Virus record (IMG/VR): IMGVR_UViG_3300025000_000055
Reading direction: 5' to 3' (one strand)
DNA from: a virus
Taxonomy: Duplodnaviria; Caudoviricetes
Length of the DNA stretch: 64,000 bases
Part shown: in pieces, positions 1 to 49,728 of the stretch
How positions within the stretch are numbered: position 1 is the first letter of the stretch
How the letters are laid out: each line of letters starts with the position of its first letter
Position numbers and translations under genes: made by a program
The notes under the pieces: model-generated
What the model saw: only the letters and a program-made list of their open reading frames with translations
Databases searched by the model: none
What the model was told of the DNA's origin: nothing

Positions 1-241
1 TTCTAGAAATTATGATTTTGAAACCCATTTAACAAAATAAAGTTCAACGACTATCCCATTGGTACTGAAATGGTACAATAGGAGTAGGGCTCAAGTGAGT
101 GGGTGAAATTCCCTTAAATCGAAATAGGAAACTCCATTATACTGATTATATAATGGATGAAGATATAGTCTAGTATCCTAATGAAAGTTAGGGAAGTTCA
201 TAAGAGAACTGCATAGATTAACGACCTATGTGAATATATCG
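1..241 (+). mobile_element. Group I intron A (3' part only) in the terminase large subunit gene
   Basis: R element GTTCAACGACTA (42-53), S element AAGATATAGTCT, and the family 3' tail ...GACCTATGTGAATATATCG ending in G241. The downstream frame resumes STQPVHLYDEVEF. Confidence 0.9.
2..40 (+). CDS. Probable C-terminal end of an intron-encoded HNH endonuclease (truncated by the window edge)
   Basis: Frame reads SRNYDFETHLTK* and stops immediately before AAAGTTCAACGAC. The HNH ORFs in introns F and K end at this same position, with similar tails (HISKDYTY*, HISKKYKIMIKK*). Confidence 0.45.
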   Translation, partial: SRNYDFETHLTK

Positions 242-1660
242 AGTACACAACCTGTGCATTTATACGACGAAGTTGAGTTTACATCCTATATTAAAACTAT
301 CATTGAGGCAGCGGCAATGGCGTTTAAAACAGCTTCTAAAAATGCAAAAAGAAATAATGCCCCTTATTGCCGTTCGTTCCTGAGCACACCTGGAGATCTC
401 GATACTAAAGCTGGACAAGAATGTATGGATATAATTAGTAAGACATATAGATGGACTGAAAAATTTTATGATATGAATATAGATGATGTTAAAGAAATTA
501 TAATAAATAATTCAGAAAATAGAATAGTTTATATTGAATACGATTATAAACAATTAGGAGAAGGTGAAGAATGGTTTAATGAATCTTGTGCAGTAATAGG
601 TAATAATCCATTAAAAATTAAGAGAGAATTATTATTACAAAGAATGAGAGGTTCTTCTAATTCTCCATTTGAACCAGAAGATTTAGAACTTATTAGAGAA
701 AAACAAGGTAAAATAATTGAAGAAATATTTATTAATAAATTATTTAGATTGGACATATATAAACCTTTAGTAAGAGATAGAATTTATTTTATATGTGTTG
801 ACGTTTCAAAAGGTTATGGTCAAGATAATTCAGCTGTAGTAATATTAGATCCATATGAACTCAAGCCCGTTGCAGAATTTGAATCACCGTATATAGGTGT
901 AACTCAATTAAAGAATTTTTTATATACACTTGTTAAGAAATATTTACCTAGAAGTATTTTATGTATTGAAAGAAATGAGAATGGTGAATCTATATTAGAT
1001 GGGTTAAGATATACTGATATAATGCATAATTTATATTTTGATAAAGATAAAGACCCTATTGCTTCACAATTAGATGATAGAATGGATAGTCAAGGATTTT
1101 TAAAACAAGAAGCTTTGAAACGTAAATTATATGGTGTATGGACTGGAACTAAATCAAGACAAGTAATGTTTAGTTTATTGGAAACACATATCGCAGAATA
1201 TAAAGATAATTTTATTTGTGCAAATATTATTAATGATTTATTTAAATTAGTCATGAAAAAGAATGGTAAGATTGAAGCTGAAAGTGGATTCCATGATGAT
1301 TCTATTATGGCATATTTAATAGGATTATATGTTTATTATCATGGTAATAATCTACATTATTTTGGTTTTGTTAAAGGTGAATTACCTGATGAAAAAACCC
1401 GAAATAAAGGATTATCGACATATGATGAAATAATGGAAGAAATGCCTGATGAAGAAAAACGATTTTTTGATGAGAGTTTTGGTTCTAAGACTATAGATGA
1501 TTATCAAAATCATGTAATAGAAGAACTAAAAAGAGTTCAAAGAGAACAAACTAATATGACTAATGCAAGTGGGATGTTTAAACCAACAACCTATGCTGAA
1601 CAATATGAAGATAATGAAATTGAAATACCATTAGACTTCTTTGATGAATTAAATAGTTAG
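242..1660 (+). CDS. terL: Terminase large subunit, 3' exon
   Basis: Walker B-like YDEVEF, STPG coupling motif, RNase H-like nuclease motifs CVDVSKGYGQDNSA and HDDSIMA. Lies upstream of the sheath and tube genes. Confidence 0.88.
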   Translation, partial: STQPVHLYDEVEFTSYIKTIIEAAAMAFKTASKNAKRNNAPYCRSFLSTPGDLDTKAGQECMDIISKTYRWTEKFYDMNIDDVKEIIINNSENRIVYIEYDYKQLGEGEEWFNESCAVIGNNPLKIKRELLLQRMRGSSNSPFEPEDLELIREKQGKIIEEIFINKLFRLDIYKPLVRDRIYFICVDVSKGYGQDNSAVVILDPYELKPVAEFESPYIGVTQLKNFLYTLVKKYLPRSILCIERNENGESILDGLRYTDIMHNLYFDKDKDPIASQLDDRMDSQGFLKQEALKRKLYGVWTGTKSRQVMFSLLETHIAEYKDNFICANIINDLFKLVMKKNGKIEAESGFHDDSIMAYLIGLYVYYHGNNLHYFGFVKGELPDEKTRNKGLSTYDEIMEEMPDEEKRFFDESFGSKTIDDYQNHVIEELKRVQREQTNMTNASGMFKPTTYAEQYEDNEIEIPLDFFDELNS

Positions 1661-1750
1661 TTATAAAATAATATAATGTATATTAATATACATTATATTA
1701 TTTTTTTACTATTATACTAACAATGTTTTAATTATGAATAAAAAAGGAGA

Positions 1751-4310: not shown

Positions 4311-4321
4311 TAATCAATGAG

Positions 4322-7058: not shown

Positions 7059-7065
7059 AAATAAA

Positions 7066-7102: not shown

Positions 7103-9729
7103 TTATTGTTCAGTTGAACTATCATCAGGATTTTCTGTTAAAATTTTCTGATATTCTAATTTAGCATCTTCTACAGCTGTATCAAACATCCTCCAAGGTA
7201 ACATTGGTAAAATTTCTCTAGTTGCCTTATTCATAATTAAATCTTTAATTTTATTATCCTTATCTGTTGGAGAAGCATTTTCTCCCGATACTATTTTAAG
7301 CATAAATGCTAGCAATTGATCTGCATTTGAAATTAAATCACTCATATTCATAGTATTTAGTGCTTTAGGTAAATTTAAACTATATACAAATGTTTCAATT
7401 ATTTCTTTAGGTATTTCTGTACCAGAAAATTTCATTATTTTTTTATAGAATTCAGTTATATTAGGGTTAAAATCAAGTTGATCACTTACAACTCTCCCTG
7501 TAAATTTGGCATTAGCCATGACAAGAGTCTTTGCATACGGTATATTCACATAGGTCGTTAATCTATGCAGTTCTCTTATGAACTTCCCTAACTTTCATTA
7601 GGATACTAGACTATATCTTCATCTTTTATTAAGTTAATTAATCCTAATAAAAGAGCTCTCCATTTCGATTTAAGGGATTTTCACCCACCTACTTAGGCCC
7701 TACTCCTATTGATCATTTCAGATCCAAAGGGATAGTCGTTGAACTTTATTCCTTATTATATAAGGAATCTTAGCTGCGGATCACCTAATCTTAAACATTA
7801 TTACCTTACTCAGGTTAATTACTCCTGACCACTATATCATTGCTAATATAGTTTGGTAGTTTAAGATTTAAAGACTTCCCCGACAATTAAAAGAGAATTG
7901 GTATTATAGATCACTCTATAACCTGACTAATAATTATCAGCTTCATTGATATAATTCATTATTACAGATGGGACACCAGTACCATTAATGTAAGATGTTT
8001 TTAACATCTCCATTAAATCAGTATTTAATTGTATATCCTGACCTGCCAATATATCAAACTCTATTCCTTTTTCACCAGTTCTACCTACAGGTACAAAAAC
8101 ACCTTTAGCATGACCAATTTTAGATACCATTGTATTATAATTTAATAAATCCATAAAATTTATATCTCTTTCTTTAAGAGTTCTAGCTACATCTTGTAAT
8201 TTATTAATAATATTTGTATCTATACCAGAATTTTTAATATAATTAATTCTAGTATCGTTAGATTTACTAATAATAGAAACCATCTTAAATATTAAAAGAG
8301 CTAAATATAATTTAGCATAAAATAATGACTTCATTAGTATACTAGTTCCTTCACCATCTTCATTTTCATTAACAGTGAATTCAGTTATATAATCAACTGG
8401 TATAAATTGAAATTTTATTTTCTTTTTATATAGTTCATTATAAGATAAGCAATTGAATATTAATTCTTTAAATTTAATATTTTCTTCTAAGTATTTTTTA
8501 TTAAATGATTTAACGATTTTTTCAGTTAGTTTAGTTAAAAACATATTTTCAAGTTCGGGTGTATTAAGATTAACAGTATTAATTCGTATTGTATTAATAA
8601 ATGGGGATTTACTAATAGGTGAAGCTTCATGTATATAATAGTATCCTATAACATGATCCATTATTTTAACAGGTATGATCTTTTTAGGACTAATTAATTT
8701 AATAAAACAATCCGTTATATTATCAAAATTATTAGTCTTATCTTTTTCTGTAGATATAGTTGCATCATTAAAAAATGTTGAAAATGAATTAGTTTTATTT
8801 TTAGATTTATTACTATTTTTAATAGCATCTTCAACATCTTTTTTAAATTTTTCATCAGTAATAAGTTCCGATACATCAACACCTTCTAGTATAGGTATAT
8901 GTACAATATCATTTTCGACTTCAATATCTTTAACTAAATCTTTTATTTCTTTTTTTAATATTGAGGAAACCGATTTAATTTGCCCGTCATCTTTTAATTC
9001 TCTTATAAAATTATCATCAATATTTTCAGTTATAGAAATTGTTTTTAATTCTCTTACCTTTTTATCATAGAAATTTTCAAATAATTTTGAATAAGGTACA
9101 GTGTAAACATAATATTTACCGTATTGAAGAGTTTTCGGTATAATATGATTTTTCAATTTACTTGATAATTTAAATTTAGTCTCTAAATTTTCTATTAATG
9201 ATATATAACTCTGTTTATCTTCTTCACTACAATTAGAACTTTTAAATTGTAAATTTCTTGATATAGATTGAGTAACATCATCAGCTGTTACTATCGCATC
9301 TCTAGTTGCATTAACAGCTTCTTCTAGCTCAAATAGATGACTACAAATTAAATCAAGGTCTTCATACAAAAGATTTTGATTTCTATATCTTTCATTAAAA
9401 AATTGAAATACAGCATTGTCTTCTGATGAAAATATATCTTCAATTTTTTTTATATTTGAAAATTGTTGACTCTCATAATCATTAAATAGTTTTACTAGAA
9501 AAGTTGATATGTCATCTCCACCAAAATCAGTTAATTTTTTTATCTCCTGAAAAATAACATCATCAACCTGATCTGATAATTTTTTAATTTCTTTCTCTCT
9601 TTTAGTATCACTTGCATTAGTATTAAAAGAAATTTTATCCAATACATCATTAAATAAAGCATTTAATTTTATCAACGGTCTTTCTATTTTTTTAACAATT
9701 ACTCTTTTAGTTTGTTTCTCAGCACTCAT
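7103..9729 (-). CDS. Portal protein, spliced (exons 9729-7936 and 7537-7103)
   Basis: Removing intron B joins ...NYINEAD|YAKTLVMANAKF... in frame (about 742 aa). Size, GVPSV motif and position near the head/tail genes fit a jumbo-phage portal. Confidence 0.7.
7538..7935 (-). mobile_element. Group I intron B (398 nt, no ORF)
   Basis: P (AATTGTCGGGAAG), Q (GATCCGCAGC), R (GTTCAACGACTA) and S (AAGATATAGTCT) elements. P1 is CTGAT|...GTCAG with a U.G pair. Terminal G at 7538. Confidence 0.92.
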
Positions 9730-9787: not shown

Positions 9788-10435
9788 CTAGTATTTAATA
9801 CACATGTATCTGTGAAATAAATTAAAGTATTCGGTTTCAAAAATTATTAAACTTTCAAATAAATTACTATTATTTATATCTTTAAAACTAATACTGATAT
9901 TATTACTTTTTTTCAATAACGGTATTAGTTTATTTGCTAATCTTACTTTATAATCATTCATTGAAAAAGTAACAATATTTTTAGCATTTAGCTTTTCTAT
10001 TATATCATATGATATTATCTTTTTATCAATATTATCAAAATCATTTATTTTATTTATAGCTAATTTATACAGATCATATAATTCTTTTGTTATAGACTTA
10101 ATATTAATTATTCTACCTATTTGAAAGCTATTTTCATCTTTATCATCTGTTAAAAATAAAGTATTATTTAAATAATTTATATGTTTTATACTCTTTTTAT
10201 TCTTACTAATAACTTTAAATACATCATTGGAACTTATACAAAATATTTGATCATTTTCAATATTAAATATAGGTGTAAATACTTTACCAAAATGTTCTCC
10301 ATAACTCAAATGTTTGTTATCGATAGTGAATATTATAGTACCATCAGAAAATAAAAGATATTCTGTAGATAATTTTTTAGCCAATTGATTAAAATCATTT
10401 AATTTTTTTACTTCAAATTTATACATATATTTCAT
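9788..10435 (-). CDS. Hypothetical protein
   Basis: 215-aa ORF between the DNA polymerase and portal genes, with AAGG RBS. Confidence 0.7.
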   Translation of the reverse strand: MKYMYKFEVKKLNDFNQLAKKLSTEYLLFSDGTIIFTIDNKHLSYGEHFGKVFTPIFNIENDQIFCISSNDVFKVISKNKKSIKHINYLNNTLFLTDDKDENSFQIGRIINIKSITKELYDLYKLAINKINDFDNIDKKIISYDIIEKLNAKNIVTFSMNDYKVRLANKLIPLLKKSNNISISFKDINNSNLFESLIIFETEYFNLFHRYMCIKY

Positions 10436-10438: not shown

Positions 10439-12910
10439 TTACACTATAATTTTATTAACATAATAATTATTAACATCATTAATATCAATAATTAGTTTCT
10501 TGTTCTTTTTAATATTTAACTTTTCTTTTATAACAGAATCTATTTCTTCTAATTTGGGAAGATTAAAAAAATCATGACCTAAACTATTTAAATCACCTAT
10601 TAACATATTATCTATAAAGATTTTACCTATATCTTCTTTTTTATCTTTATCATCAATATCTTCAATATAATTTGGCAATTCCTTATTATTTTCTATAATT
10701 AATTTACCGATCATGGAATTAGGTTCAATATTAAAACAAATAATAATACTTGGATACATACTGGAAAACGTAATATTCACATAGATCGTTATTCTATGCA
10801 GTTCTCTTATGAACTTCCTTAGCTTTCACTAAGATACTAGACTATATCTTCATCCATTATATAATCGGTATAATGGAGCCTCCTATTTCGATTTAAGGGA
10901 TTTTCACCCACCTACTTAGGCCCTACTCCTAATGACCATTTCAGATCCAAAGGGATAGTCGTTGAACTTTATTCCTATAACTAGGAATCTTAGCTGCGGA
11001 TTACTCAATCTTTTTATTATAAATAAAAAGCTCTAAGAGCTTCCCCGACAATTAAAGAAGTTATTCAACATACATTACTATATGAGGGAACAAATTCATC
11101 CATATCAATAACATTGTCAAATATAAATTGACTTTTTTTACCTAAAATTTCAATACCAACATGAGAATTTAATAATGGGTTGGCAACTAAAGCTCCTGCA
11201 AATTTTTCATCTTCATCATCTTCGTTATTCTTGATTGTTTCTACACCATACTGAATATTAATGTTATTAGCTATTATTAACCCTTGCTTATAAAATTCTA
11301 TATATGCACGATTTTTTAAAAACGTTAAGTTCACATAGATCATTAGTCTATGCAGTTCTCTTATGAACTTCCCTAAGCTTTCCTTAGGATACCAGACTAT
11401 ATCATCATCTCATAGAGATGCTTCCTATTTCGATTTAAGGGATTCTCACCCACCTACTTAGGCCCTACTCCTAATGACCATTTCAGATCCAAAGGGATAG
11501 TCGTTGAACTTTATTCCTATAACTAGGAATCTTAGCTGCGGATTACTCAATCTTTTTATTATAAATAAAAAGCTCTAAGAGCTTCCCCGACAATTAAAGA
11601 AGTTTACAATACATATTACTATGTAAAGGGTCTAATTATTAAACCGTTTGTCTAAATACTTTTTTATAAGTTGTAGCATTAGTATATGAACGTTGATATA
11701 CATTATCAATATCATTAACTTTTCTTTCAATACCTAATTGAAGTAAGACGTCTTTAATATTATACATAACAAATTTTTTATAATTTCTATATGGTAAAGT
11801 TTTAATATTACCATCTTCACTATAATCTAATTTAGTATCACTAATTTCTTTTTCTGCAACATAAGTAAGAGCATTAGAACGTAATTCCGAAGCTCCTTTT
11901 CTTAAAGCACTGTATACTATCATTTGATCTAAAAAAACTGTATAAGATGATATTTTAAAATAATCACCTTTATTTGCTACTTTAAAATTTCTCATATCTT
12001 TTACAAACATTAATTCTTTTATATTAAAATCAGGATGACACATTATTTCTTTTGGATCTAAATTTAACTCTTTCATACGAGCTATTAAATATGGGACATC
12101 AAATCCGATATTCCAAATCATTAAGAAATCACGTTTAAGAGTATTTATTAATTTAAATGTATCTATCAACATTTCACTTTCATCTTCATACATATAAATA
12201 TTATATTTTAATACCCCATATGATTCATCAAATACTTTATGAAGCTCTTCTACAAAATTATCTATATCTTTTTTAAACTTTTCTATTTGAGGATTATTTT
12301 CATTTTCTAAAAGAAAAGTAAAACATGTGTTACTAGTTTCATCAATTAAAGTAATTGCATTAACTGGACATTCACCATCTTTAGGAAATCCAATTACTTC
12401 TATTGAATCAACTTCAATATCAAGATATGTCTTAGTTATAGGTTTAGGTTTATCATTATGATAATTTAATAACCATTGTATTCTATACCAATTTTCAATA
12501 TTATAATCTGAACCAAATACATATCTATATTTATGCAAATTATTAATAGCATACCTATTTCTAGTTTCCAACTTTTGTTTAATATAAGTTAAATATTCTT
12601 CACCTGCTTGTTTAGCTATATAAAAAGGTAAATCTTTATATTTAGTTCGGTGACACTCAGTTTCACTTAAAGGACTAAATGATTTATTATGTTGAAAATT
12701 TCTAAATTCTTCTTTTGTAAAATAAATATCCATCTCAGGTTCATCTATAGTTAATATGTGTTTTTCACCAGTATTTAAATCTTTATAAATAATATCGAGA
12801 CTATCTTTATACTTTCTTTCTTTATTAGGAAAATGGTAAATTGTTTCTAAAAACATTATGTTATCACTTTTCATCTTTCCAAGAAACTTCATTCTATAAA
12901 TCACCACCAA
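10439..12910 (-). CDS. Family B DNA polymerase, N-terminal subunit of a split enzyme, spliced (exons 12910-11642, 11322-11098, 10768-10439)
   Basis: Exonuclease motifs YLDIEVD, WNIGFDVPY and YNIKDV. Splicing restores RQTV|FLKNR and motif A VIDMD|FSSMYPSII. The product (about 607 aa) ends without motifs B and C. Confidence 0.9.
10769..11097 (-). mobile_element. Group I intron C (329 nt, no ORF) in DNA polymerase motif A
   Basis: Family P/Q/R/S core and tail GTGAATATTACG. Excision restores DMDFSSMYPS. Confidence 0.92.
11323..11641 (-). mobile_element. Group I intron D (319 nt, no ORF) in DNA polymerase
   Basis: Family core, P1 GGTT|...GACC, tail GTGAACTTAACG. The join is in frame. Confidence 0.92.
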
Positions 12911-22536: not shown

Positions 22537-23475
22537 TTATTTTAAAACATGTTCTCTAATTTTTTTGTTATAAATAACTTTTATCCCCTCATTCCCCATG
22601 ATTTTTCTGATTTTTGGAATAGTCCATTTCCAAAAATCCTTATCAGCATTGGTTAACCAAGCGTTGGTATCTTTTTCTTTCTTATATTCATTTAGAAGTT
22701 TTCCTATTATTGACATAGGAAAACTTCTTCCCTCTACTGCACAAATTGATCTATAACCACTACCAATAAATGGAGTTGTTTCACCCCAACTACCTTCTAT
22801 AGTAGGAAGAAGTGCATTATCATATGTTACAGTGTTGAGTTTTATTTCCATTTCATTTAACCATTCTTGGTTGAAAAGAACAATATCTTTTTCAAAATAA
22901 TAGATTAAATTGTTATCAACGTATGTCCAAATAACTTTATTTGAATTGAAAATATGTTCTTGATATTCATCAGGAACAGAATTTAAATTCCAAGGTTTAG
23001 AATTTTTTTTAGTAAGAAATTCTTTGTAATTAAAATAATTACTTTCACCTTCTCCAACCACAAGATTACCTTGCTCTCCTTTCAATGAGGCGAGCTGAAA
23101 AGAAGCATTCATTATTTTATCTGATAGTCCCGATGCTTTAACAGGACTATACATATACATATTATTTGGAAAAATGTGAATTGATAATGGTCTAAAATTC
23201 CAAATTTTGTTTTCTAGTATTGCGGACACGGTTTCAGTTTTCTGTAATTCATGAGGAAAAAATTTCATAGTATTTCCCTCAGATGACCTAGCAAAATAAT
23301 TATTCCTTGTAACAGCAATATGAAAATCTTTGCTGTCAAAATCTTTTAGACTATTAATACAACCAAAGTTTCCAGCATGTCTTAAAACTAATTGGTTGTG
23401 TATATTTTTAGTACATCCATATGCTGCAATGTGAAGATTTCTAGAAGTTGTATCAATCAATAAAATATTAGACAA
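22537..23475 (-). CDS. Hypothetical early protein
   Basis: 312 aa, AAGGAGG RBS with TTG start, preceded by the early motif and leader hairpin. Confidence 0.7.
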   Translation of the reverse strand: MSNILLIDTTSRNLHIAAYGCTKNIHNQLVLRHAGNFGCINSLKDFDSKDFHIAVTRNNYFARSSEGNTMKFFPHELQKTETVSAILENKIWNFRPLSIHIFPNNMYMYSPVKASGLSDKIMNASFQLASLKGEQGNLVVGEGESNYFNYKEFLTKKNSKPWNLNSVPDEYQEHIFNSNKVIWTYVDNNLIYYFEKDIVLFNQEWLNEMEIKLNTVTYDNALLPTIEGSWGETTPFIGSGYRSICAVEGRSFPMSIIGKLLNEYKKEKDTNAWLTNADKDFWKWTIPKIRKIMGNEGIKVIYNKKIREHVLK

Positions 23476-23667
23476 GTTTCCTCCTTAAAATAAATCACTA
23501 ATGATTTAATCCAATAAGTACATTTATTTCCCCTTATTGGTGGGAATATTATTTAATTCTACTATAATAATATATACTTGAATATAAGGAATATACCATT
23601 TCATCATAATTTAATTAAAGTCTTTTTACCAGTACCAATATAATCAATTTTACAATTTATTTGACTT

Positions 23668-26875: not shown

Positions 26876-26989
26876 GTTAACAACCCCTTGTAGATTTTTA
26901 TTATATAAATAATATATATTTATATAATTAATTATTATAAAAAAATAAAAGGAATAATATAAACAATCCTTTTATTATATATCTTCCCA

Positions 26990-27625: not shown

Positions 27626-27733
27626 CTCCCTATAAATTTATTTATTTCTAAGATAATAATATATAAATATAGATTACAAATATACTAAAAAAATAAAAGG
27701 GTTATTTTATTAACCCTTTTATAAAATATTAAA

Positions 27734-29695: not shown

Positions 29696-32600
29696 TTAAA
29701 TATCTTCTTCTATACCATTCATTTTAATTTTAATATAAAAAAGATTTGTATTTTCATTCTCTTTCCTTTTAACTTGGAATTTATTATTAATTTCTCTTAT
29801 AGTATTAATTCTATCTAAATATTCTTCTTCATTATCATAGTCAATTGAAACAAAACAACTATTAGGTTCATCTTCCTTACAATATTTAAATAAATCTTTC
29901 TCAAATAAACATTTAAAACTTTCTGGTTCTCTTGAATCATCAAAGAATAAACCATGAGTTTTACAAAAAGGAGTTATAATACCACTAGTGCCTGGATCTG
30001 TTATGTTCACATAGGTCGTTAATCTATGCAGTTCTCTTAAGAACTTCCCTAAGATTTCCCTAGGATACCAGACTATATCATTAACCTAAATTTATTAGGT
30101 TACTTCCCACTTCGATTTAAGGGATTCTCACCCACCTACTTAGGCCCTACTCCTATTGCTTATTTCAAAGCCAAAAGGGATAGTCGTTGAACTTTATTGT
30201 TATAATTAATAAGTGTAATCTTTTGATATGTGTACCCATGAAGTTCTTTTTCTTAAATGTTTAACCAAACCCCTATAAGATTCATTTTGTTTTTTGTCTT
30301 TAACTATCATATTCATCTCCTTTCTTATCTCATATTCAGAATAACCTTTTTCTAATAAAATACATATCCCACGAATTAATGTTTCTGAATATTTATTACA
30401 TCCATGTCTTTCACCTTTAACTGGTTTTTGTAACCCTTCTCTCCATGAATGATCAATATTTTCTTTAGGAGTACTCCATTCTAAATTTTTATAAAAATTA
30501 TTAGTTTTATTAGTATCTTTATGATTTATATGAATATATTTTTCATTAAAAAACACTTTTAATGGTAGAAAATAATATCCGACTAATCTATGTATATAAA
30601 ATTTTCTTTGTTTTTTGTATCCTTTTAGCGTACATCTTAAATAACCATCCTTATCAGTAAAAGGACTTAAAAATCTACCAGTTAATTTATTTCTAACCTT
30701 ACCATAATTACTAATTTCGTATATATTTTTAACATTATATTCTATAATATCTTTCCATTCTTCTTCATGGGGTTTAATAAATATTATCATTTAATACACA
30801 CCTCTTAACATATAACAATCTTAGCTGCGGATTACTCAATCCTAAAACCTTGTTACCATACCTTAGTTGATTAGACTAAGCCACTATATTGTTTCCGATA
30901 TAGTTTGGTAGTTTTAGGCTATAAGAGATTTCCCGACAATTAAAGAAGTTTTCATCATAAGTTACCCTATAATGCTCCAATCCAGTAGAGTTACCGCATA
31001 CGTTAATATCGAGCTTCCCAATGTAAGATGGATGAATATCACGATATTTTTTTGATATCCTATTGTCATTCTTACCACCCAAACTATTCGGACCTTTAAT
31101 AGTATATCTTAGTTTACTAAAAAAATCCATATCATTTATTTTATCCGTTGTGTTCACATTACTCGTCAAATAATGCAGTTCTCTTATGAACTTCCCTAAG
31201 TTTCCCTAGGATACCAGACTATATCTTCATCCTTAATTAAGTTAATTACTCTCATTTAAGGAGCTCCCCGTTTTAACTCACCATTATAGACTTGTGAGAT
31301 TACTCTACTTCATATGTTAATTTCTATAACATATTTTTCGATAGTCTTTGAACTTTCACCTTTATATAATTTTTTCCAAGATCTCCCTGATTTGATATTA
31401 CTCATTAAAGTATAAAGATTTCTAATTTCCCTTTTTGATAAATTATTTAAACCTAGTTTATCAATTATCTTTTTATGTTTTAATCCTTGTTTCATAAACT
31501 TAATTATATTTCTTATTAATTCTTCATCATATCTTTTTTGTTTACATTTATTCAAATCAATATTTTCGGTTAAATAAATTCGTGTTCTTTTAGCTCTTAA
31601 ATCATTTATAAATGTACGTATATTTTTTTTATTTTCTAAATTTAATTCATAAATTATAATATCAGTACTTTTATTTTCTTGTAATAAAGATACTATTTGT
31701 TTAGATAATTTATCCGAGAATTTACTTAAAGGATGTTTTTCTCCAATAGGTTTATTTCCTTCCTTATATGAATACGCAATATTTTCTTTCTGAGTACATT
31801 TTTCTAAAAGATCTAATTTATTAAATTTATTTATACTATCTTTATGATGAATTATCATTGATTTATCAGATATATTAAAATCTGACATAAAATAATAAGC
31901 TAATAATCTATGAATTAAAAAATTTCTAAATTTACCATCTATACATGATAATTGAATATATTCGTATTCTTTAGTATTTTTAGAATTTTTTAAAATCCTA
32001 TTAAATTTATCATTTCTAATAAATCCATCAGAATTTATAGAATAATTCTTTTTAACTTGGGGCAAATCTATTTTTACCCAATCTTCTTTTTTCATATCTT
32101 TCTCTTTTCTTTATATAATTTTTATTTTTCTTGGAAAATATATCTTTATAAAGGTTATTAGCTGCGGATTGTCCAATCCTTACTGTTATTACTATACCAG
32201 GTTAATTACTCCTGCCACTATAATATCACTATTATAGATTAGTAAGTAAGGCCCTAAGGAGTTCCCCGACAATTAAAGAAGATTCTTTACAATATTACTA
32301 CTGTAAAGGACAGTATCTATCAAATCTTAATAATCCTGAATCATGTAAATTCTGAATTAGCATATCTCCAGGAAATTTAAATATTTCTTCAATATTTTCT
32401 AAAGTCATTTTTTTACCTAAACTAATAACTCTATTCATTCTTTTACTAAATGCTTTAGTTAATAAAGAAGCAATATATTCATTACATCTTAATCTTTTAT
32501 TATCTATAGACATATTATCTTTCTTTCTTAATTCATCAAAATTTTGAATCATCCATCTGATAACAGAATAAACATTCTTTCGATGTTCATAATCTATCTT

Positions 32601-33551
32601 TAATATATTCTTAGTTGTTTCATCTATTAATCTATCAAAGAAGATTAAAGTATTTAATCCTTTCTCATAGTAGTTATAAGCCATAGTAGCACTTAAACTT
32701 CCAATACGACCAATCCAATATTCAATATCATTTAAAAATTCAAAACTTAATCTATTATTAGAAACATTCATAATCATGAAAACTATACTCTGCACATATA
32801 GATATTTGTTAAAGAAGAATCTATTTACTTTTATTAACATTTTCTTATTAATACGAAAATATATATATTTGTCTAAATCTGTTTCATTTTCTGTAAATTC
32901 TATAATAGAATCAACTGAAAAATATTTAAGTGTTTTTTCAACACCCATTTTAGCAAAATAAAATAAAAGTACATCGACTTCTTTTCTAAACACAAATACC
33001 CCATAAGTATTAGCAATATAAGTTTCTCCCTGAGTATCTGGATATTCCTTTTTGTTTCTTTTTAACGACAATGGCATTAATGATTTTAAAATTAAATTTT
33101 GTTTGGTTGTATAAGTTGAACTATCAACAAGTTGATATATTAAGAAGTATTTTTTACCTTTAATAGTGTAATATCCATTTTCATCTGGAATTGGTACTAA
33201 TAATTTCTTAGTATATAATTTGCTTTTATTTTTACAATTTAGATTAAATTTTAATTTTAGTTCACCATAGCGACTATCTTGTAAATACATATATTTTTCT
33301 GTAACTTTTTTATTATCAGCATCCTTAGTCTGTTTAACTTTTTGTCTTGTTGATATATAGTCATTAATATCAATTTTAGATTCATCATCAATGAATTCAT
33401 ATCCAAGAAACTTAATATTTTTAAGAATTTCTAATGACTTACAACTATTGACGATATAATTAATCAAATTATCATCATGAGTATGATTAATTATATCATA
33501 GTTGATTCTTTCTTCATTAGGATTCCTATAATGTTTTATAAACTTTTTCAT
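29696..33551 (-). CDS. rpoB: Multisubunit RNA polymerase beta-like subunit, N-terminal part (probably non-virion RNAP), spliced (exons 33551-32319, 31145-30987, 29998-29696)
   Basis: Splicing gives LLRFD|DKINDMDFFSKLRYTIKGPNSLGG...RDIHPSYIGKLDINVCGNS|DPGTSGIITPF, matching the RpoB region RDVHxSHYGRxCPxETPEG. About 564 aa. Confidence 0.85.
29999..30986 (-). mobile_element. Group I intron F (988 nt) with an HNH ORF; terminal nucleotide is A
   Basis: P1 CTCT|...GGAG, P10 TGGATT pairing with GATCCA, family core, tail GTGAACATAACA. Confidence 0.88.
30206..30790 (-). CDS. Intron-encoded NUMOD4-HNH homing endonuclease
   Basis: YEISNYGKVRN, IHRLV and INHKDTNKTNN...NLEWSTPKEN motifs. Located between the Q and R elements (P6 loop). 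Confidence 0.88.
   Translation of the reverse strand: MIIFIKPHEEEWKDIIEYNVKNIYEISNYGKVRNKLTGRFLSPFTDKDGYLRCTLKGYKKQRKFYIHRLVGYYFLPLKVFFNEKYIHINHKDTNKTNNFYKNLEWSTPKENIDHSWREGLQKPVKGERHGCNKYSETLIRGICILLEKGYSEYEIRKEMNMIVKDKKQNESYRGLVKHLRKRTSWVHISKDYTY
31146..32318 (-). mobile_element. Group I intron E (1173 nt) with an HNH ORF
   Basis: P1 GAT|...GTC, P/Q elements, R variant GTTCAAAGACTA, S element, tail GTGAACACAACG. Confidence 0.88.
31310..32095 (-). CDS. Intron-encoded HNH endonuclease (motif partly degenerate)
   Basis: YSINSDG, IHRLLA and IHHKD...LEKCTQKEN motifs. The 3' end overlaps the intron R element. Confidence 0.82.
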   Translation of the reverse strand: MKKEDWVKIDLPQVKKNYSINSDGFIRNDKFNRILKNSKNTKEYEYIQLSCIDGKFRNFLIHRLLAYYFMSDFNISDKSMIIHHKDSINKFNKLDLLEKCTQKENIAYSYKEGNKPIGEKHPLSKFSDKLSKQIVSLLQENKSTDIIIYELNLENKKNIRTFINDLRAKRTRIYLTENIDLNKCKQKRYDEELIRNIIKFMKQGLKHKKIIDKLGLNNLSKREIRNLYTLMSNIKSGRSWKKLYKGESSKTIEKYVIEINI

Positions 33552-38828: not shown

Positions 38829-41715
38829 TCATACTTTAATATCAATAACGAACATTTCTTCTTTAATTCTTCGTCTCTCAACTTCTTCATCTAAAAGTTT
38901 TTCGAAATCTTTTGTAGTACCAACAAATACTTTATTTTCCTTATATTCATTAATAATGTCTATTCGTCTTTTAATATCTTTAAATTCTTCATTATTACTT
39001 ATAAAGAATTTTCCATCATAAAATTTACCTTCAAGAAACCCAGTATTAATATCTATATCAAATAATTCATTATTAAATTCAATTTTTAAACCCATAGATT
39101 TCAAAAAGGCTCCTAATATTTCAATATTTCTATTTTTAAAATTTGGTTTATATTTAAAATCTTTTATAGGGTTTAATCTTGTCATTAAATTTTCACCTAA
39201 ATTACGTCTACCTATAACAGATGACCTATAAAATAAATGTAGTTGAGCTATTAGTTCAGTTGGAACACCTATATTAGTATTAAGATTTTCATCAATACCA
39301 ATTCTTATAGGAGTCTTAGAATATAATTCCTGATGAGTTTTAGCCTTATTAGATTTTTCAGGTAAACCTTTTCTAGATAAAGTTCCAGTTGATCTAGCTG
39401 AAAAACCTTTCTTAGCTGTTTGCATTAATTTCATTACATACATATCACCAACTACTAACTTTTTCATCATTTTAATTTTCCTACCAAATCTATTTGTATA
39501 AACATCATATTGTTCAATCCAATCATGTTCTTCATATAATTGAATAAGTTTATCAAATAAAAATTCTTCTTCCCATAAAGGAGGTATATGAATAAATACA
39601 CCTTCTTCAACTAAATTATTAAAAAATTCTTCTTTACTAATAACACTTAATCTCTTTAAATATTGTCTTAATTTTTCTTCTTGGTCTTTATTAAAATAAC
39701 TTATTATATTAAGAAATAAATCTTCCTTTTCTTTTATGTCAGTCATTGTTTGAATACGTTCTACAGTTCTATTACAAATAAAAGTAATTGATTGTTCAAA
39801 AAGCTGGTATGAGTTTACAATTGTTTTAGACCATATCTTCATCTCAAATGAGATGCCTCCCGTTTCGGGTTTCCCCTACTCTACTTACTTCTTCAGTTAT
39901 AAGTAAATTATAACCTATGCTTTCGATGGTCGTTGAGCATATTTCAAATATTAATATTTGAAACTTCGCTGCGGATTATTCAATCTTAAACCTTTTTACC
40001 ATACCTGAGTAATTACTTCAGCCCTTATCTATATGTCACCATGATAAGTTGGTAGATTAAGATTAGCGAACTTTCCCGCAATTAGAGAGGTTTTAAATCG
40101 CCTAAACCTTACCAGTCCAGCGATTGATCACAGATAAACTGTTAAACAGAAGGTCTACACGTTCTCCAGTTTCTAAAAATGGCATCTCATCATCAGGTAA
40201 TATCTTTGATATAACACCTTTGTTACCATATCTCGTTGTATTCACATAGAACGTTAATCTATGCAGTTCTCTCATGAACTTCCCTAGTTTTCACTAAGAT
40301 ACTAGACTATATCATTAACCTAAATAAATTAGGTTACTTCCTATTTCGATTTAAGGGATTCTCACCCACCTACTTAGGCCCTACTCCTATTGTACATTGC
40401 AGTACCTAAGGGATAGTCGTTGAACTTTATTCCTTATATAAGGAATCTTAGCTGCGGATTACTCAATCTTTTAATAATATAAATATTATTAAAAGCTCTA
40501 AGAGCCTCCCCGACAATTAAAGAAGTTTTCTATATATGTCACCACATATAGGGGCTAAGCTATGTAACCCGTTACTTTCTGACCCACTTCTAAATAGGCA
40601 TCTTTTTCAACTAAAAATTCTATTACTATATTGGAAAATACTGAGTTATTTTCTTCTCTCCATTTATATTTTTCGTCTAATATATTTTTTGCTTTTCTCA
40701 TATAAAAACTTATTTCTCTAGAATATTTAGAACCAGAATCAATTATCTGTTTACATCTTTTAAATATTCTTTCATAATAAACTAATTGCATTTTATAATA
40801 TTTCATTATCTGTCTATTAAAATCATTCTCTTCCAATTCATCTAAAGTTTTATTACAATATATATCTATATCAATAATTTTACCTTTACCTTCAATAAAG
40901 AATAATACATCAGAAGTAAAATCAATCTTTCTAAGATTAGATTTCTTTAAATCATATAATAATTGATTATTATGAATTCTCCTCTTAGCACAAATTATTT
41001 TATCCTTAACATATTCGTTTATATCAGGAAATGTCTTATAATTATTACCATTCCCATATATATTACAAAAGATATCATTATCATTTAATGAAACTTTAAC
41101 TCTCTCAACTTCTGTTGAAACCATTCTTCTTGATAATGATTCTGAACATACAATAGCATCTTCAATAGTATTATTCTCTAAAAGATACATAAACTTAACA
41201 TTAGCACCATAACAATAATTCATATCTTCATCATAAGAAGAACTCTTATAAAGAACTTCTCCTTTATATATTGAAGTCCCAACTTCTTTATTATCAATAT
41301 TATCAGTATTATATTTGAAACCATATCTTTCTGTTAAATCTTCAACGTTTTTCTTTTCTATAATATCATATTGGTCATTTTCTTTATCATATATGAATAA
41401 TAAATATATTTGTTCTTCATTTTCACCATCTGTAAACTTACTAATTTTATCAATAATAACACAATCATTTTTAACTTTTTTATAACCAGTTGAATTCTTA
41501 CCAACTATATTTTCATAATTAGTAAAAATTCTTGGAAATTCGGGATTATTTAGAGTAACACATTGCTTCAAGTGAGCTGTAAACATAATATTTCTTGATG
41601 AACTAATATAACCTGGATTTGTTAAAAGAGTCATCCCAAATATATCATCTTTACCTTTAAACTCCTTTTCTTTTTCTTGTAATATTTCTTTCAATGACAT
41701 TGTAGTTTTATACAA
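38829..41715 (-). CDS. rpoB: Multisubunit RNA polymerase beta-like subunit, C-terminal part (probably non-virion RNAP), spliced (exons 41715-40567, 40233-40119, 39817-38829)
   Basis: Splicing restores GQKVTG|[11 protein letters not shown]...MPF...SVINR(T|TA=L)NSYQLFE, equivalent to the RpoB GDKxxGRHGNKG and SRMN motifs. EDAIV and [17 protein letters not shown] are also present. About 750 aa. Confidence 0.9.
39818..40118 (-). mobile_element. Group I intron H (301 nt, divergent, lacks P9)
   Basis: P AATTGCGGGAA, Q AATCCGCAGC, P7 GACCA/TGGTC. 7-bp P1 AATCGCT|...GGCGATT and 6-bp P10 GGTTTA/TAAACT. Confidence 0.88.
40234..40566 (-). mobile_element. Group I intron G (333 nt, no ORF)
   Basis: Family core, P1 GGGT|...GCCC, tail GTGAATACAACG. 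Excision restores TG|RYGNKG. Confidence 0.92.
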
Positions 41716-41806: not shown

Positions 41807-43763
41807 TTATATAGCTTTTTGAAATTGTTTTTCTTGTGATTTTTCTAACCTATCACATAATTCAAAAATATTTAATAATTGACCATTTTCTTCTGGTTCA
41901 ACATGCGATAGTTGTTTTTCTAATATAGGTAATGACCTATTAAATAATTCGTATCTTAATTTTTCATTAGTAAGAAATTCTTTTCTAAATTTTCTACTAT
42001 CAAATTTAATATCTTTTACACCTTCAATATATTTATAAGGATTACGACCAGCAATTAATTCATTATCTTCAGCAAATCTTAGTTGAGTTAAAATAGGGTC
42101 AAAACCAGTGGATTGGTCATAAATAAGATTTACAAATTGACCAGCTTTATTTGTTCTAGATTTTAGAAACTCAGCTCTTACACCAAATCCATCAAAACCA
42201 TTTTCTTCTTTCTTAAATTTTTCTGAACCTAAAGCTATAAAATTAACTAATAAATTAGCATAATAGATCGATTTATTCACATTGGTTGTCAGTCAATGCA
42301 GTTCTCTTATGAACTTCCCTAATTTTCATTAGGATACTAGACTATATCTTCATCCTTAATAAATTTTATTAAGGAGTTACCCATTTCGTAAAGAACTCTG
42401 AAAAGTTCACCTCACCATTATTGACTTGTGAGTCTACTCCTACTTTACTTTTATTAAAAGTAACGTCATCAGATAGTCGTTGAACTTTATTCCTTATTAA
42501 TTAATTAAGGAATCTTAGCTGCGGATTACTCAATCTTTTTATTATATAATAAAAAGCTCTAAGAGCTTCCCCGACAATTAAAGTAATGCTAACATAATAT
42601 TACTATTATGCCACCCTAAATTTAGGTGCATTCCCACCCGTTAAGTTCACATAGTTCGTCAAACTATGCAGTTCTCTTATGAACTTCCCTAAGCTTTCCT
42701 TAGGATACCAGACTATATCATTAACCTAATAAGAATTATTAGGTTACTTCCTATTTCGATTTAAGGGAATTTCACCCACCTACTTAGGCCCTACTCCTAT
42801 TGATCATTTCAGATCCAATGGGATAGTCGTTGAACTTTATTCCTTATTAATTAATAATAAGGAATCTTAGCTGCGGATTACTCAATCTCTTAATAATATT
42901 AATGTATTAAAAGCTCTAAGAGCTTCCCCGACAATTAAAGAAGTTATTCAACATACATTACTGTATGAGGCCCCACAAATCTCGAGTTTAGGGATACTCT
43001 GATCCATCTTCATATATAATAATTGTGGTTGCGTTTTATGCATAGGGTTAATTTCAATTTTTTGATTAATATGATTTATAGCAATAACATTTATGTTATA
43101 GGCTTTTATAATTGGCATTAGTCTCTTATAAAATTGGGCCAAAGCTTTAGCAACTCTGTTAGCATAAGTCCCACCTTCCATTTCATTAGAAGCATCTTTT
43201 GAAGCAACAGTTGGAATTGAATCTATAATCATAACTGTTGGAACAAAGGTTTTAATGGGTCTATTAAATTCATCAACTAATCCTGTATCATAAGTATAAT
43301 CTTTTCTATTAACTTCTTTCTCTTGAGCTATTTCAACTATACTATTAAATATATCTTCAATATAATTTTTTTCTTGTTTCAATAAATATTTATCATCAAG
43401 TTCTTGCTGAGTCATAGATGTTACATTTTTTATTCTGGTATAAGATAATACTTGTTCTAAGTCGTAATGTTGAACAAATGCATTATCAACAAATTTTCTA
43501 ACAATATTGGCTGCAATTTGAATAGCAAAAGTAGTTTTAGCAGTACCAGCCTTACCTATAATTGTCATAAACGTACCACCAACTATACCAATAGAAGAAT
43601 AAGTAGTTATAAGTTTCTCATCTAAATCTCTAACTTCCACCATATACCCATTTCTATAATCAAATGGTACAAAACCTGTTGGATAACAAATGGATGTTTG
43701 TGTTGGACTAAATAAACCCTTTTTATCTTTTTCTCTTAATCTTGAGAGCATTTTATTAGCCAT
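41807..43763 (-). CDS. recA: RecA/UvsX-like recombinase, spliced (exons 43763-42990, 42638-42624, 42268-41807)
   Basis: Walker A GKAGTAKT, Walker B MIIDSI and INHI motifs. Splicing gives DQSIP|GGNAP|IYYAN, equivalent to RecA L2 TTPGGNALKFYA. About 416 aa. Confidence 0.9.
42269..42623 (-). mobile_element. Group I intron J (355 nt, no ORF)
   Basis: P1 CACCT|...GGGTG, P/Q/R/S elements, tail GTGAATAAATCG. Confidence 0.9.
42639..42989 (-). mobile_element. Group I intron I (351 nt, no ORF)
   Basis: P1 CCCT|...GGGG, family core, tail GTGAACTTAACG. Confidence 0.92.
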
Positions 43764-46824: not shown

Positions 46825-47001
46825 TAAGTTTCTAATATTAATTTGTTGTTTATTTACAAATTAATTTTTATAATTCTCAACTCCTTAAAATTTAATCTTT
46901 ATACTTTAAAAATAATATATATTTATAAAGTAAATATAATTTTTTATATAATAATAAAAAATAAACATAGATAATACACTATCTATGTTTATTTGCCATC
47001 A

Positions 47002-47721
47002 CTAATTAAAACAATCTAAAGTATAAATTCCATCTTTATCTGGACTATTAAATATTATTGATGTTTCATCAGATATATTTAGAGCTGGACGAACACCAAA
47101 TATCATATTAATAAAACATGATCTATACGTCACCCCTAAATAATTAACATAGGTGGGTGATGGTATAAGAAATGATCTACTTCGTAACCACCACATCCAC
47201 CCATGATTTCTTTCTCTTTTTTTCTTATTAATTTTAATATTATCATTATAACATTCTTTTGATAAAGTTGTTATACGTTTTTCAATATTCCCAACAAAAA
47301 TAGGCAAAATATCAGAACCTTCAATATTATTAACTTCTGCTCCAACTTCCACTAATGATAAAAGAAACACTTTATCTATTAAGTCATCAGTTAATTTGGT
47401 GTCATGTTCATTTTTTATAACCTTAATATTAGTATCTAAAATCTTAGAAAATTCATTAGTAGTAAAGTGACTTAAAAATCCTGAAACTGTATTTAACCAG
47501 TAACGTATATCGGAAGTACCATATGATTTTATTTTATCTTTTGAAAAAGGGTGTAAATCAATAATTTCATCTGTCAATAAAGTAACAGAATTCTCAGGAT
47601 AACCCGGATGGTTCTTAGCAACTATTCTCCAAATAACAGGTGTTATTTCATTGTCACCAACTTTATAACTACCAAATCTAACTTTGTCACTAATATTTAA
47701 TTCTTTAATTAATTTAGACAT
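47002..47721 (-). CDS. DUF6273-like domain protein
   Basis: WRIV, SDIRYWLN, DKVFLLS, WWLRS and GVRPAL motifs. ATG 47721 follows an AGGAG RBS. Confidence 0.7.
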   Translation of the reverse strand: MSKLIKELNISDKVRFGSYKVGDNEITPVIWRIVAKNHPGYPENSVTLLTDEIIDLHPFSKDKIKSYGTSDIRYWLNTVSGFLSHFTTNEFSKILDTNIKVIKNEHDTKLTDDLIDKVFLLSLVEVGAEVNNIEGSDILPIFVGNIEKRITTLSKECYNDNIKINKKKRERNHGWMWWLRSRSFLIPSPTYVNYLGVTYRSCFINMIFGVRPALNISDETSIIFNSPDKDGIYTLDCFN

Positions 47722-48018
47722 ATCACCACTCCTTTTATATTTTTTATTTAAATATAATATATAAATATAATCTTTTATATTTGTTTCTAGATATATAAAT
47801 ATATAATAAGATGTGTTTATTAAACACATCTTATTATATATTATTTACTTAAATTATCTAAATTAGTTTTTACAGATGACTCAATTAATGTCTCTAAATC
47901 ATCCTTTTTTTTAATCTTTTTCTTTGTTGGGTCCTCAATATCTAATTCCCCAAATACACCAACTTCAGTTAGTAAACATAGTTCTTCATTATTTTCTAAC
48001 ATATTTTTCAACCTCCTA

Positions 48019-49728
48019 TTATTTTAAAGATTTTTTAACTAGTAAACCCTTTGTAACTAAGTCACTATTTATACCCATACTCGTCAAATGCACATCAATT
48101 AAATTTAATGTTACTTTATTTTCAACATTATTAGTCAAACTATTTAGAGAAACAAATCCTTTTTGTGCTATAGATGCATACATTTCATTCTTCATAACCA
48201 TATCATCGGCTCTCGGCGATAAGTTCATATTGTTCGTTAGACAATACAGTTCTCTTATGAACTTCCCTAGGGTTTCCCTAGGATACCAGACTATATCACT
48301 AACCTAAAAATATTAGGTTACTTCCTATTTCGATTTAAGGGATTCTCACCCACTCACTTGAGCCCTACTCCTATTGCTTATTTCAAAGCCTAAAGGGATA
48401 GTCGTTGAACTTTATTCTTATTTTTTAATCATAATTTTATATTTTTTCGAAATATGACCCCATTTACCATATTTTATACCATCTATTAAACTATAAAAAC
48501 TATTATTGTTCTTTCTTTTTTTATAACCATATATATGCATTATTTGCATTTGAGTAAGCCCCTTCTCAAGATATTCGCATATTTCAGTAACTAACGCTTC
48601 TGAATATTTAGCATAATAATTTAAACTACCATTACAACCAAATCTACTTTTACCATGAATTAAACTAAAGTCATTATTTTCTTTAGTTGTAACCCATTCA
48701 AGATTTTCGTAATAATTATTAAATGAACATGTATCTTTATGATTCACATTGATTATACATTGTTCTTTATTATAACCATTAATAAATTCCCAAGCAACAA
48801 GTCTATGTATTGCAACATTTTTAATTTCTTTATTTTCACCCATTAATCTTAAATGTAAATATCCTTTTTTATCATGAAAACATTTTAAAAATCTATCAGT
48901 TTTTATATTTTTTATTTTACCATAGTTACTTATTAAATAAGTATTCTTTTTAATAGATGGATATGTAATATTTCGAAAAATTTCTTTATCTTTTTTAATA
49001 ACTATATACATTTTTTATCATCCTTTTAAAATAAATTAAAAAAATGTATAATAAGATATTAAAAAATAATATAACTTATAAATAAGAATCTTAGCTGCGG
49101 ATTACTCAATCTTTTTATTTATATAAATAAAAAGCTCTAAGAGCTTCCCCGACAATTAAAGAAGTTTTCTATATATGTTACCAATATATAGGGGCTAAGC
49201 TATGTAACCCATTAGCTCTCTTAGTGCATCATTGGCTCCAACAGATAATAATGAAAAGTTTTCTTGATCTGATTCTCTAGCGTTTTTATCTTCACCAACG
49301 ACCTGACCAGTCATTGCAGAACGACTTGAACTTTTTGTTGATAAAGTATTTTTTTTACTCAATAATTGTTGCATTCTTTTAATATGAACATAACCAACAG
49401 GTACTTCGTATTTAGTAACAACGGGATTATCAATATTATTATTAACAAAAGGTACTACTATTTTTTCGAATAAAGGTATATCTAATACTTTAGCCGCTTT
49501 TTCTATATTGTCAATATTTAAATCTCTCTCATAATCAACCATATCTAAAATAAGATATTGGTCATCATCTTTAAAAAATTCTTTAAAAAAAATATCGAAT
49601 TGTTTATCACTCATTGGTTGAAATAGTTCTTTATATTTTTTAGTGTTTATACTTGTTGGGTCTAAAGCATCAAACGTATCATAAATTAGTTTTTCCATCT
49701 TTTTTCTTTTATTTTTAATAAGATTCAT
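48019..49728 (-). CDS. C-terminal fragment of an RNAP beta-like subunit (probably virion RNAP), spliced (exons 49728-49207, 48216-48019)
   Basis: VPVGYVHIKRMQQ...RSAMTGQVVGEDKNARESDQE resembles the RpoB C-terminus. Splicing joins LRELMG|PRADD (about 239 aa). Late motif at 49760-49771. Confidence 0.72.
48217..49206 (-). mobile_element. Group I intron K (990 nt) with an HNH ORF
   Basis: P1 GGGT|...GCCC, family core, tail ATGAACTTATCG. Confidence 0.9.
48418..49011 (-). CDS. Intron-encoded NUMOD4-HNH homing endonuclease
   Basis: YLISNYGK, IHRLVA and VNHKDTCSFNNYYENLEWVTTKEN motifs, located in the P6 loop. Confidence 0.88.
   Translation of the reverse strand: MYIVIKKDKEIFRNITYPSIKKNTYLISNYGKIKNIKTDRFLKCFHDKKGYLHLRLMGENKEIKNVAIHRLVAWEFINGYNKEQCIINVNHKDTCSFNNYYENLEWVTTKENNDFSLIHGKSRFGCNGSLNYYAKYSEALVTEICEYLEKGLTQMQIMHIYGYKKRKNNNSFYSLIDGIKYGKWGHISKKYKIMIKK

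Follow-up and report, generated by a model that had tools for sequence, protein, structure and literature searches.

How can a single family of group I introns come to occupy seven unrelated core genes of one phage? This question is raised by a 64-kb stretch of viral DNA (IMG/VR record IMGVR_UViG_3300025000_000055; 25.4% G+C), hereafter the window, meaning the whole stretch that was analysed, in which an earlier note had listed ten related introns and an eleventh, divergent one (labelled A to K) and had proposed a family that actively transposes within the genome. The RNA polymerase (RNAP) beta protein of the window is 36-38% identical to those of Listeria phage LPJP1, Staphylococcus jumbo phages and the Bacillus phages PBS1/AR9, and, judged by this similarity, the window is a fragment of an uncultured AR9/PBS1-like jumbo phage. 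No near match to the window was found among 50,697 phage records, and the public runs containing its sequence, four in number, are all groundwater metagenome DNA of one study. The comparisons described here make it likely, in our judgement, that one IA2-like family has come to occupy about 20 sites in each genome, that its members are modular, with cores exchanged by non-allelic gene conversion, and that the occupancy of the sites is turning over.

A self-BLAST of the window revealed a dispersed repeat at exactly the ten family positions (A-G and I-K), and an nhmmer profile, built from six copies without an open reading frame (ORF), retrieved the same ten copies, with H as a weak, divergent match. 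The host genes, identified by PHROGs, Pfam and annotated homologues, are terL, the portal gene (the AR9/PBS1 homologue is annotated as portal vertex protein), the family-B DNA polymerase gene (two introns), three RNAP beta-family genes (five introns) and UvsX, assigned by a PHROG match to UvsX-like recombinase (two introns). These searches agree with the earlier note that ten copies of one family lie at non-homologous sites in seven host genes and that H is an eleventh, divergent intron. The introns and adjoining exons are as follows.

1..241, plus strand: intron A, 3' part only (P7 to terminal G), cut by the window start; nhmmer 35-241, E 5.5e-59.
242..1660, plus strand: terL 3' exon; PHROG terminase large subunit, in frame with ORF 230-1660.
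7538..7935, minus strand: intron B, portal gene, no ORF, 398 nt; exons 7936-9729 and 7103-7537; Rfam 67.3 bits.
10769..11097, minus strand: intron C, family-B DNA polymerase gene, no ORF, 329 nt, at the DxD^FSSMYP motif (^ denotes the junction); 3' exon 10439-10768.
11323..11641, minus strand: intron D, DNA polymerase gene, no ORF, 319 nt; exons 11642-12910 and 11098-11322.
29999..30986, minus strand: intron F, RNAP beta-family gene, HNH/NUMOD4 ORF at 30206-30790, 988 nt; 3' exon 29696-29998.
31146..32318, minus strand: intron E, same RNAP beta-family gene as F, 1173 nt; exons 32319-33551 and 30987-31145.
39818..40118, minus strand: intron H, divergent, of another group I lineage, 301 nt, phase 1; 3' exon 38829-39817; Rfam 65.1 bits.
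40234..40566, minus strand: intron G, RNAP beta gene, no ORF, 333 nt, at the G^RYGNKGV motif; exons 40567-41715 and 40119-40233; Rfam 76.4 bits.
42269..42623, minus strand: intron J, UvsX gene, no ORF, 355 nt; 3' exon 41807-42268; Rfam 62 bits.
42624..42638, minus strand: micro-exon GGNAP, 15 nt, between I and J.
42639..42989, minus strand: intron I, UvsX gene, no ORF, 351 nt; 5' exon 42990-43763; Rfam 73.4 bits; junction confirmed.
48217..49206, minus strand: intron K, RNAP beta N-terminal subunit gene, HNH/NUMOD4 ORF at 48418-49011, 990 nt; exons 49207-49728 and 48019-48216.

Relatives at several distances were drawn from IMG/VR. G001 is a complete genome of 249,853 bp (~250 kb) whose flanking exons are 89.8% identical to those of the window; G003 is the phage of G001 assembled from another sample, G002 is a 75-kb fragment, and L063/L064 represent a separate lineage. 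G004 (complete, 218 kb, with terminal repeats) and G005 (227 kb) exhibit protein identities of 52-67% to the window, and L068/L069 of ~45%. The IMG samples 3300025000 and 3300025010 together yield several distinct relatives. Across the intron-bearing regions, assemblies made independently from two samples show 99.7-100% identity in two different lineages, which argues against random chimeras while leaving room for a systematic artefact.

A conserved 21-mer of the family (at most 2 mismatches) occurs 10 times in the window, compared to 0 times in 100 shuffles. No further family copies were detected in the 64-kb window by self-BLAST and nhmmer, including the part past position 49206. The core identity among the ten copies ranges from 70 to 93% (median 84%), with E and J as outliers; the near-identity that had been claimed for the copies therefore holds for the conserved and conversion tracts and not for the introns overall. 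The family profile matched A, C, D, E, F, and K with E values of 1e-27 to 1e-103, whereas the Rfam group I model (RF00028) alone misses all six and detects five of the eleven introns (B, G, H, I, and J, at 62-76 bits). Its match list also varies with the filter setting (B is lost in E-value mode, G and H in gathering mode), and it gave no match on L063, L065, and L068, even where a clear family intron is present. Because it misses clear family copies, the Rfam model is an insensitive detector, and its negatives were not relied on.

The predicted removal of the introns reopens the reading frames at B, C, D, E, F, G, I, J, and K, in six genes. All seven host genes are uninterrupted in G004 and G005 (the terL orthologues are 696/733 aa long), and the spliced window proteins exhibit no gap or extra residue relative to those of G004/G005 at any of these nine junctions, as seen for B (NEAD^YAKT), D (FRQTV^FLKNRAY), E (LLRFD^DKIND), F (CGNS^DPGTSG), and K (RELMG^PRADD); the junction of J (GGNAP^IYYAN) agrees with L003/L005. 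For intron H, which had been placed at roughly 39827-40145, the true bounds are 39818-40118, since with these the intron is in phase 1 and has a 7-bp P1, and the H-bearing gene becomes a 750-aa ORF colinear with L003/L005. In total, 10 of 10 testable junction pairs are colinear with the intron-less orthologues, the 5' end of A lying outside the window. Empty sites at the DNA level were found for C, E, and F in G001 and for G in G002. For intron A, just the 3' 207-228 nt are inside the window; it is a copy of the family, as had been claimed, but the interval 1-241 is not a whole intron, and the orthologue in G001 is complete, 382 nt long, and ORF-less.

The 5' exons all end in U, which is paired, by eye, to the G of a 4-7-bp guide in P1 (again with the 5' end of A outside the window). 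The P, Q, R, and S elements are almost invariant, and P7.1/P7.2 extensions are present. In an RNAalifold consensus of 25 copies, both-side (compensatory) changes were seen in 33 of the 62 consensus pairs. By their resemblance to known introns, these elements appear to be group I introns of the IA2-like phage type, and they would presumably self-splice. Ten of the eleven introns end in G, whereas F, contrary to the shared CG-type end listed in the earlier note, ends in A.

Several further features of the junctions were noted. All ten family introns are in phase 0, that is, between codons; the joint chance of this for the nine introns tested (the target of A being outside the window) is ~0.003, given 4-nt targets and the codon-position bias of this AT-rich genome. 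In most copies, an in-frame stop is present within 1-14 codons of the 5' splice site. In intron F, the G-binding region of P7 is unchanged, and the closest relative of F, an intron of G001 termed E', seems to end in A as well, provided that the conserved Pro codon is kept.

A search of the complete relative revealed ~20 family copies spread over the whole of G001. In contrast, G004 carries 0 copies and G005 has 2 weak matches, the polymerase gene of L068 is uninterrupted, and wherever a site was checked in G004/G005 or in the more distant L068, it was free of introns. In published phages, the family is detectable at 1-2 places per genome.

Eight of the eleven sites (A, B, D, G, H, I, J, and K) are common to the window and G001. 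The remaining sites, and some of those that are shared, differ in occupancy among the relatives. For intron C, G001 has a precise empty site, and the site is occupied in L063/L064. For intron G, a precise empty site is present in G002, which does carry E. For the gene that contains E and F, the introns of the window follow ...LLRFD and ...CGNS, whereas those of G001 follow ...RYTIKG (E', +54 nt) and ...CGNSDP (F', +6 nt), so that four sites lie within ~220 nt in phages whose exons are ~90% identical. Window F and G001 E' are the same intron-plus-HNH unit, with 80% identity. Further scans for relatives of this gene returned only contigs already in the set.

The cores of orthologous introns are 82-92% identical between the window and G001, compared to ~90% for the flanking exons. 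Together with the shared sites and with the co-divergence of P1-P2 with the site, shown below, this indicates that most insertions predate the split of the two phages and that there was no very recent burst. These results support an intron family that, on the sequences compared, is dynamic and not static: the active family of the earlier note stands as far as the empty sites for C and G, the shifted E' and F' positions, and the turnover of cargo are concerned, and it does not stand as a very recent burst.

The cargo consists of endonuclease-like genes. In the window, ORFs are borne by E, F, and K, and eight introns show none, A being seen only in part; the figure of seven out of eleven without an endonuclease, given in the earlier note, is thus corrected. 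The products of the three ORFs are paralogous HNH/NUMOD4 proteins. For F, matches were obtained to NUMOD4 (4e-12), HNH_3 (3.5e-5), and I-HmuI (PDB 1U3E, E 3.8e-14), and for K to NUMOD4 (3e-6) and HNH_3 (2e-5). For E, the family's most divergent member, ORF 31310-32095 encodes a 261-aa NUMOD4/HNH-like protein with a weak match to NUMOD4 (8e-4) and a PHROG HNH match (1.5e-17). By these matches, the F ORF encodes a homologue of I-HmuI, a nicking enzyme, and its product is a predicted homing endonuclease. Pfam on ten neighbouring ORFs revealed no free-standing homing endonuclease, and phmmer with the three intron ORFs detected no further paralogues across the window.

This cargo differs among the relatives, with ORFs in E, F, and K of the window, in D and E' of G001, and in K and H of G002. 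The orthologue of D in G001 carries a ~0.8-kb insert, the orthologue of K lacks an ORF in G001 and has one in G002, and C in L063/L064 has an extra insert of ~470 nt. In addition, intron H in G002 (L047 8197-9295, at window 39946-39959) contains an insert of ~1.1 kb that is absent in the window and in G001, and this insert is probably another endonuclease gene.

All copies were aligned to the family profile, and four-sequence (quartet) patterns were counted for pairs of sites, window versus G001. For P1-P2 (columns 1-40; seven sites, F included), 231 patterns grouped the copies by site, 5 by genome, and 5 in the third pattern, in agreement with the claim of the earlier note that the 5' guide region distinguishes the copies. 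For the core, the totals were hand-summed from the pair rows over the orthologous sites B, D, G, I, J, and K, with E and F excluded as non-orthologous positions; here, 258 patterns grouped by site, 115 by genome, and 30 in the third pattern, which serves as the control. Without exchange, the by-genome and third patterns would be expected to be about equal, and the difference of 115 versus 30 therefore indicates exchange between copies. For the quartet of D and I, 17 patterns were by genome, 0 by site, and 1 other.

The exchanged tracts are visible in individual copies. C and D, which are 225 nt apart, share an exact run of 159 nt (10904-11062 in C) and match in 167 of 168 columns through P3-P7.2. 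The 3' third of C is 94-96% identical to its orthologue in L063, whereas the centre of C is just 81-88% identical to the same orthologue. From P8 to the 3' end (P9.2), D in the polymerase gene of G001 and I in its UvsX gene, which lies 33 kb away, are 100% (50/50) and 96% identical; over this region, the orthologue of D is 79-85% identical, with up to 92% seen across the orthologues of D. Six of the eight window copies have a P7.2 hairpin of the form CCUA/UAGG, whereas 13 of the 14 G001 copies have CUCA/UGAG, among them the orthologues of B, D, G, and I as well as F', 6 nt from site F; both variants coexist, at 6 and 2 in the window and at 13 and 1 in G001. The nearest G001 copy is the orthologue at three of the nine positions compared, two of which (E and F) are non-orthologous. 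The mosaic tracts, the quartet counts, and the P7.2 variants together show gene conversion between sibling copies at different loci, as read from the aligned assemblies, and of the possibilities listed in the earlier note, gene conversion is thereby supported. No relevant literature on concerted evolution of group I introns was found.

The process that we regard as likely would then run as follows. A lineage-specific expansion would have brought the family to ~20 sites per genome, ten of them inside the window. At each site, the P1 guide would pair with the last 4-7 exon bases via a U.G pair, and the conserved P3-P9 core would excise the intron, restoring the essential reading frame. The P1 guide, and mostly P2 too, would stay tied to the insertion site, whereas the ribozyme core and, where present, the I-HmuI-like HNH gene of the P6 loop would be exchanged between copies at different loci of one genome. 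This exchange would be DNA recombination, namely non-allelic gene conversion, and would keep the cores alike. Occupancy would shift between co-occurring relatives through homing, loss, and the occasional seeding of new sites, which would be constrained mainly by guide compatibility.

Among the alternatives, the one that survives best dispenses with transposition inside the genome. The sites would be spread over a co-infecting metapopulation, with allelic homing by HNH nicking (in cis, or in trans for the copies without an ORF) and loss producing the observed occupancy; we consider this a real possibility, although short of an even chance. It is in line with the several distinct relatives from the same two IMG samples, the precision of the empty sites, and the presence and polymorphism of HNH genes homologous to I-HmuI, and also with the 80% identity of window F and G001 E', which is below the exon identity and hence suggests that these two copies separated before the split of the two phages. 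Much of the presence/absence pattern probably reflects ordinary homing among relatives that occur together. However, this alternative gives no account of how the family first reached at least 22 non-homologous sites, nor of the within-genome identity tracts between loci.

The arrival at new sites bears on a second alternative, transposition at the RNA level, in which excised introns reverse-splice into guide-complementary sites of transcripts, are copied to DNA, and are recombined into the genome. Copies that share a guide were found in two groups: the guide UAGCCCC (target GGGU) is common to K, G, and A of G001, and the guide UGGGG (target CCCU) to I and two other G001 copies (135k and 17.5k). 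Within each group, the targets share 4-5 nt and little else, as this alternative predicts. P1-P2 of G and K are 94% identical, G being the copy that is missing in G002, and the guide of D is one base off the G/K guide and corresponds to a target GGUU instead of GGGU, i.e., a one-base change retargets the guide. The same pattern is the circumstantial evidence for ribosomal DNA (rDNA) introns (PMC1299323, PMC3984707).

Nevertheless, RNA-level transposition appears unlikely. A search with RVT_1 (PF00078) gave no reverse transcriptase match in G001, G004, or G005, other reverse transcriptase families and host enzymes not having been searched, and reverse splicing as the route, which the earlier note had put forward, is not supported in the complete relative G001. 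The route also has no direct experimental support in any system (PMC3984707; 2014 review, Hausner and colleagues). Moreover, the survivors of any insertion route would show this pattern, since an insertion in an essential gene lasts only if it is compatible with a guide; the guide-sharing pattern may fit guide-directed integration such as reverse splicing, and it fits equally any insertion route combined with selection for splicing. A bolder version would be a naturally retargetable intron, with a site-bound guide and an interchangeable ribozyme-nuclease core kept uniform by recombination, which would enter new sites in essential genes by guide-directed integration, that is, by reverse splicing into RNA or into single-stranded intermediates of replication, with no reverse transcriptase of the phage; this we put forward as a doubtful proposal.

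A static origin, in which each site was colonised once and then inherited vertically, the likeness of the copies reflecting a conserved catalytic core, is very unlikely. The earlier note had named as evidence against its own view introns at the same sites in relatives with divergence matching the host genes, and this was found in part: 8 of 11 sites are common with G001, the intron cores are 82-92% identical versus ~90% for the exons, P1-P2 is almost purely site-specific (231:5:5), and by-site is the largest class of core patterns (258). As a complete account, however, it is contradicted by the precise empty sites of C in G001 and of G in G002, the differing positions of E/F and E'/F', the absence of the introns from sister genomes, the exact tracts shared by paralogues, the excess of by-genome patterns over the control, and the small number of positions, three of nine (E and F among the nine being non-orthologous), at which the orthologue is nearest. 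The least likely alternative, that a short-read assembler merged variants of ~20 repeats and so created the core similarity within each genome, draws on the facts that every sequence is a metagenome assembly, that exact runs of 45-58 nt between copies are enough to tangle a de Bruijn graph, and that a majority variant dominates each assembly, but is opposed by the agreement of the two-sample assemblies in two lineages, by the coexistence of both P7.2 variants in the window and in G001, and by flanks that are never swapped and frames that are all restored.

Expansion with exchange of cores thus remains the account that we favour, and the following observations weigh against it. A maximum-likelihood tree of the 205-nt 3' module was poorly resolved and was dropped as evidence, and in approximately unbiased (AU) tests, site-wise clades were not rejected at most sites (p=0.047 for F, p=0.096 for I, and >0.2 for the others); the evidence for conversion therefore rests on the tract and quartet analysis of metagenome assemblies. 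The quartet columns are not independent between pairs, and a systematic assembly artefact among 20 similar repeats retains some weight. Differential loss from an intron-richer ancestor could give part of the site differences in the absence of new insertions. Finally, the terminal A of intron F is atypical of the family, although its junction is nonetheless fixed by a 4-bp P1, a 6-bp P10, the protein colinearity, and the empty site in G001.

The UvsX gene has a further peculiarity. The intron-less L003/L005 read ...IPGGNAPIYYA... without a break, which indicates that GGNAP, five codons flanked by I and J, is a genuine exon of 15 nt, one that is also kept in G001 and G002. Conceivably, this exon is skipped or the I and J ribozymes interfere with each other. 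Directly downstream of the 607-aa polymerase gene lies a 215-aa ORF (9788-10435) with no Pfam or PHROG match; since the polymerase ORF is 605-632 aa in the relatives, this ORF is a gene in its own right rather than a missing exon. Elsewhere in the window, three copies of an unrelated repeat were seen, with 81-97% identity (52141-52380, 54252-54478, and 62441-62649), and short intergenic repeats (50-120 nt, 77-88% identity) are found at 23468-23585, 58156-58227, 58963-59110, 26885-26949, and 27637-27701, and these may be promoter or terminator regions.

The known systems resemble the window to different degrees. AR9 and the Staphylococcus phages MarsHill, Madawaska, and Machias belong to the same phage group as the window, as shown by the 36-38% identity of RNAP beta. 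In AR9 and MarsHill-like phages, introns occur in the RNAP subunits, DNA polymerase, and terminase, and relatives differ in how many they carry and where (10.1101/2020.12.14.422802). The intron cores of PALS_2 and MarsHill are 75-77% identical to the window family, at single sites there, and published genomes carry the family detectably at 1-2 places compared to ~20 in G001. The portal gene of AR9 is uninterrupted, whereas that of the window contains intron B, and MarsHill-like phages encode a reverse transcriptase, in contrast to G001 with its lack of an RVT_1 match. The literature compared on this group contains no report of concerted core evolution or guide-sharing groups.

The three introns of phage T4 are similar to one another. 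In K-like phages, introns of the lysin and Mre11 genes match the core of the window family at 70-76%. As in the window, Twort and other Herelleviridae (SPO1, Bastille) contain several related IA-type self-splicing introns per phage, several per gene, and nicking HNH enzymes of the I-HmuI type (PMC3984707, PMC11878797), with up to three introns per gene in Bastillevirinae (PMC11878797). Twort, the Herelleviridae, and T4 carry a handful of introns per genome, whereas G001 carries ~20 of one family, and the literature compared on Twort and the Herelleviridae describes no 15-nt exon between two introns and no inter-locus conversion tracts.

The jumbo gut (Jug) phages carry a mean of 18.5 group I introns in each genome, whose splicing metatranscriptomes confirmed, and resemble the window phage in a comparable intron load in essential genes (terL, DNA polymerase) and in the many HNH endonucleases, according to the passages of that report considered here (PMC12880540). 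According to the same passages, they differ from it in forming a separate group with predicted Bacteroides hosts and introns of ~206 nt on average, and the passages contain no analysis of a single family, of site turnover, or of core exchange (PMC12880540). In the jumbo phage PhiPA3, gp210 is likewise an intron HNH in an RNAP gene, and co-occurring relatives differ in occupancy; gp210 serves competition between co-infecting jumbo phages (PMC11620839), whereas in the window there is no sign that the enzymes cut competitors, and most copies have no enzyme. The ectopic group I introns of rDNA also form related copies whose targets share just the complementarity to the guide, which was attributed to reverse splicing (PMC1299323). 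Those introns sit in eukaryote ribosomal RNA genes, whereas the introns of the window sit in essential protein genes of a virus and undergo recombination between copies at the DNA level.

Intron-rich jumbo phages were thus already known, and what is new here is the scale reached by a single family, the complete sister genome free of introns, the contrast between a site-bound guide and an exchangeable core, and the explicit conversion tracts. The dependence of packaging, replication, transcription, and recombination genes on one ribozyme type, as the earlier note put it, is fair as a description. On the practical side, Rfam's group I model leaves half of these introns undetected, and where introns go unrecognised, the terminase, portal, polymerase, and RNAP subunit genes of such phages are called in fragments. 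The way in which group I introns arrive at new, non-homologous sites is a long-standing question, and this clade is a dense natural data set for it, with ~20 copies per genome, an intron-free sister, empty and shifted sites, guide groups, and conversion tracts. It separates two processes that are usually confounded, the choice of site, which is tied to the guide, and the similarity of the copies, which is kept by recombination. If the retargetable intron considered above were real, this would be the first viral system, compared with those described here, in which the ectopic transposition of group I introns can be retraced one event at a time.

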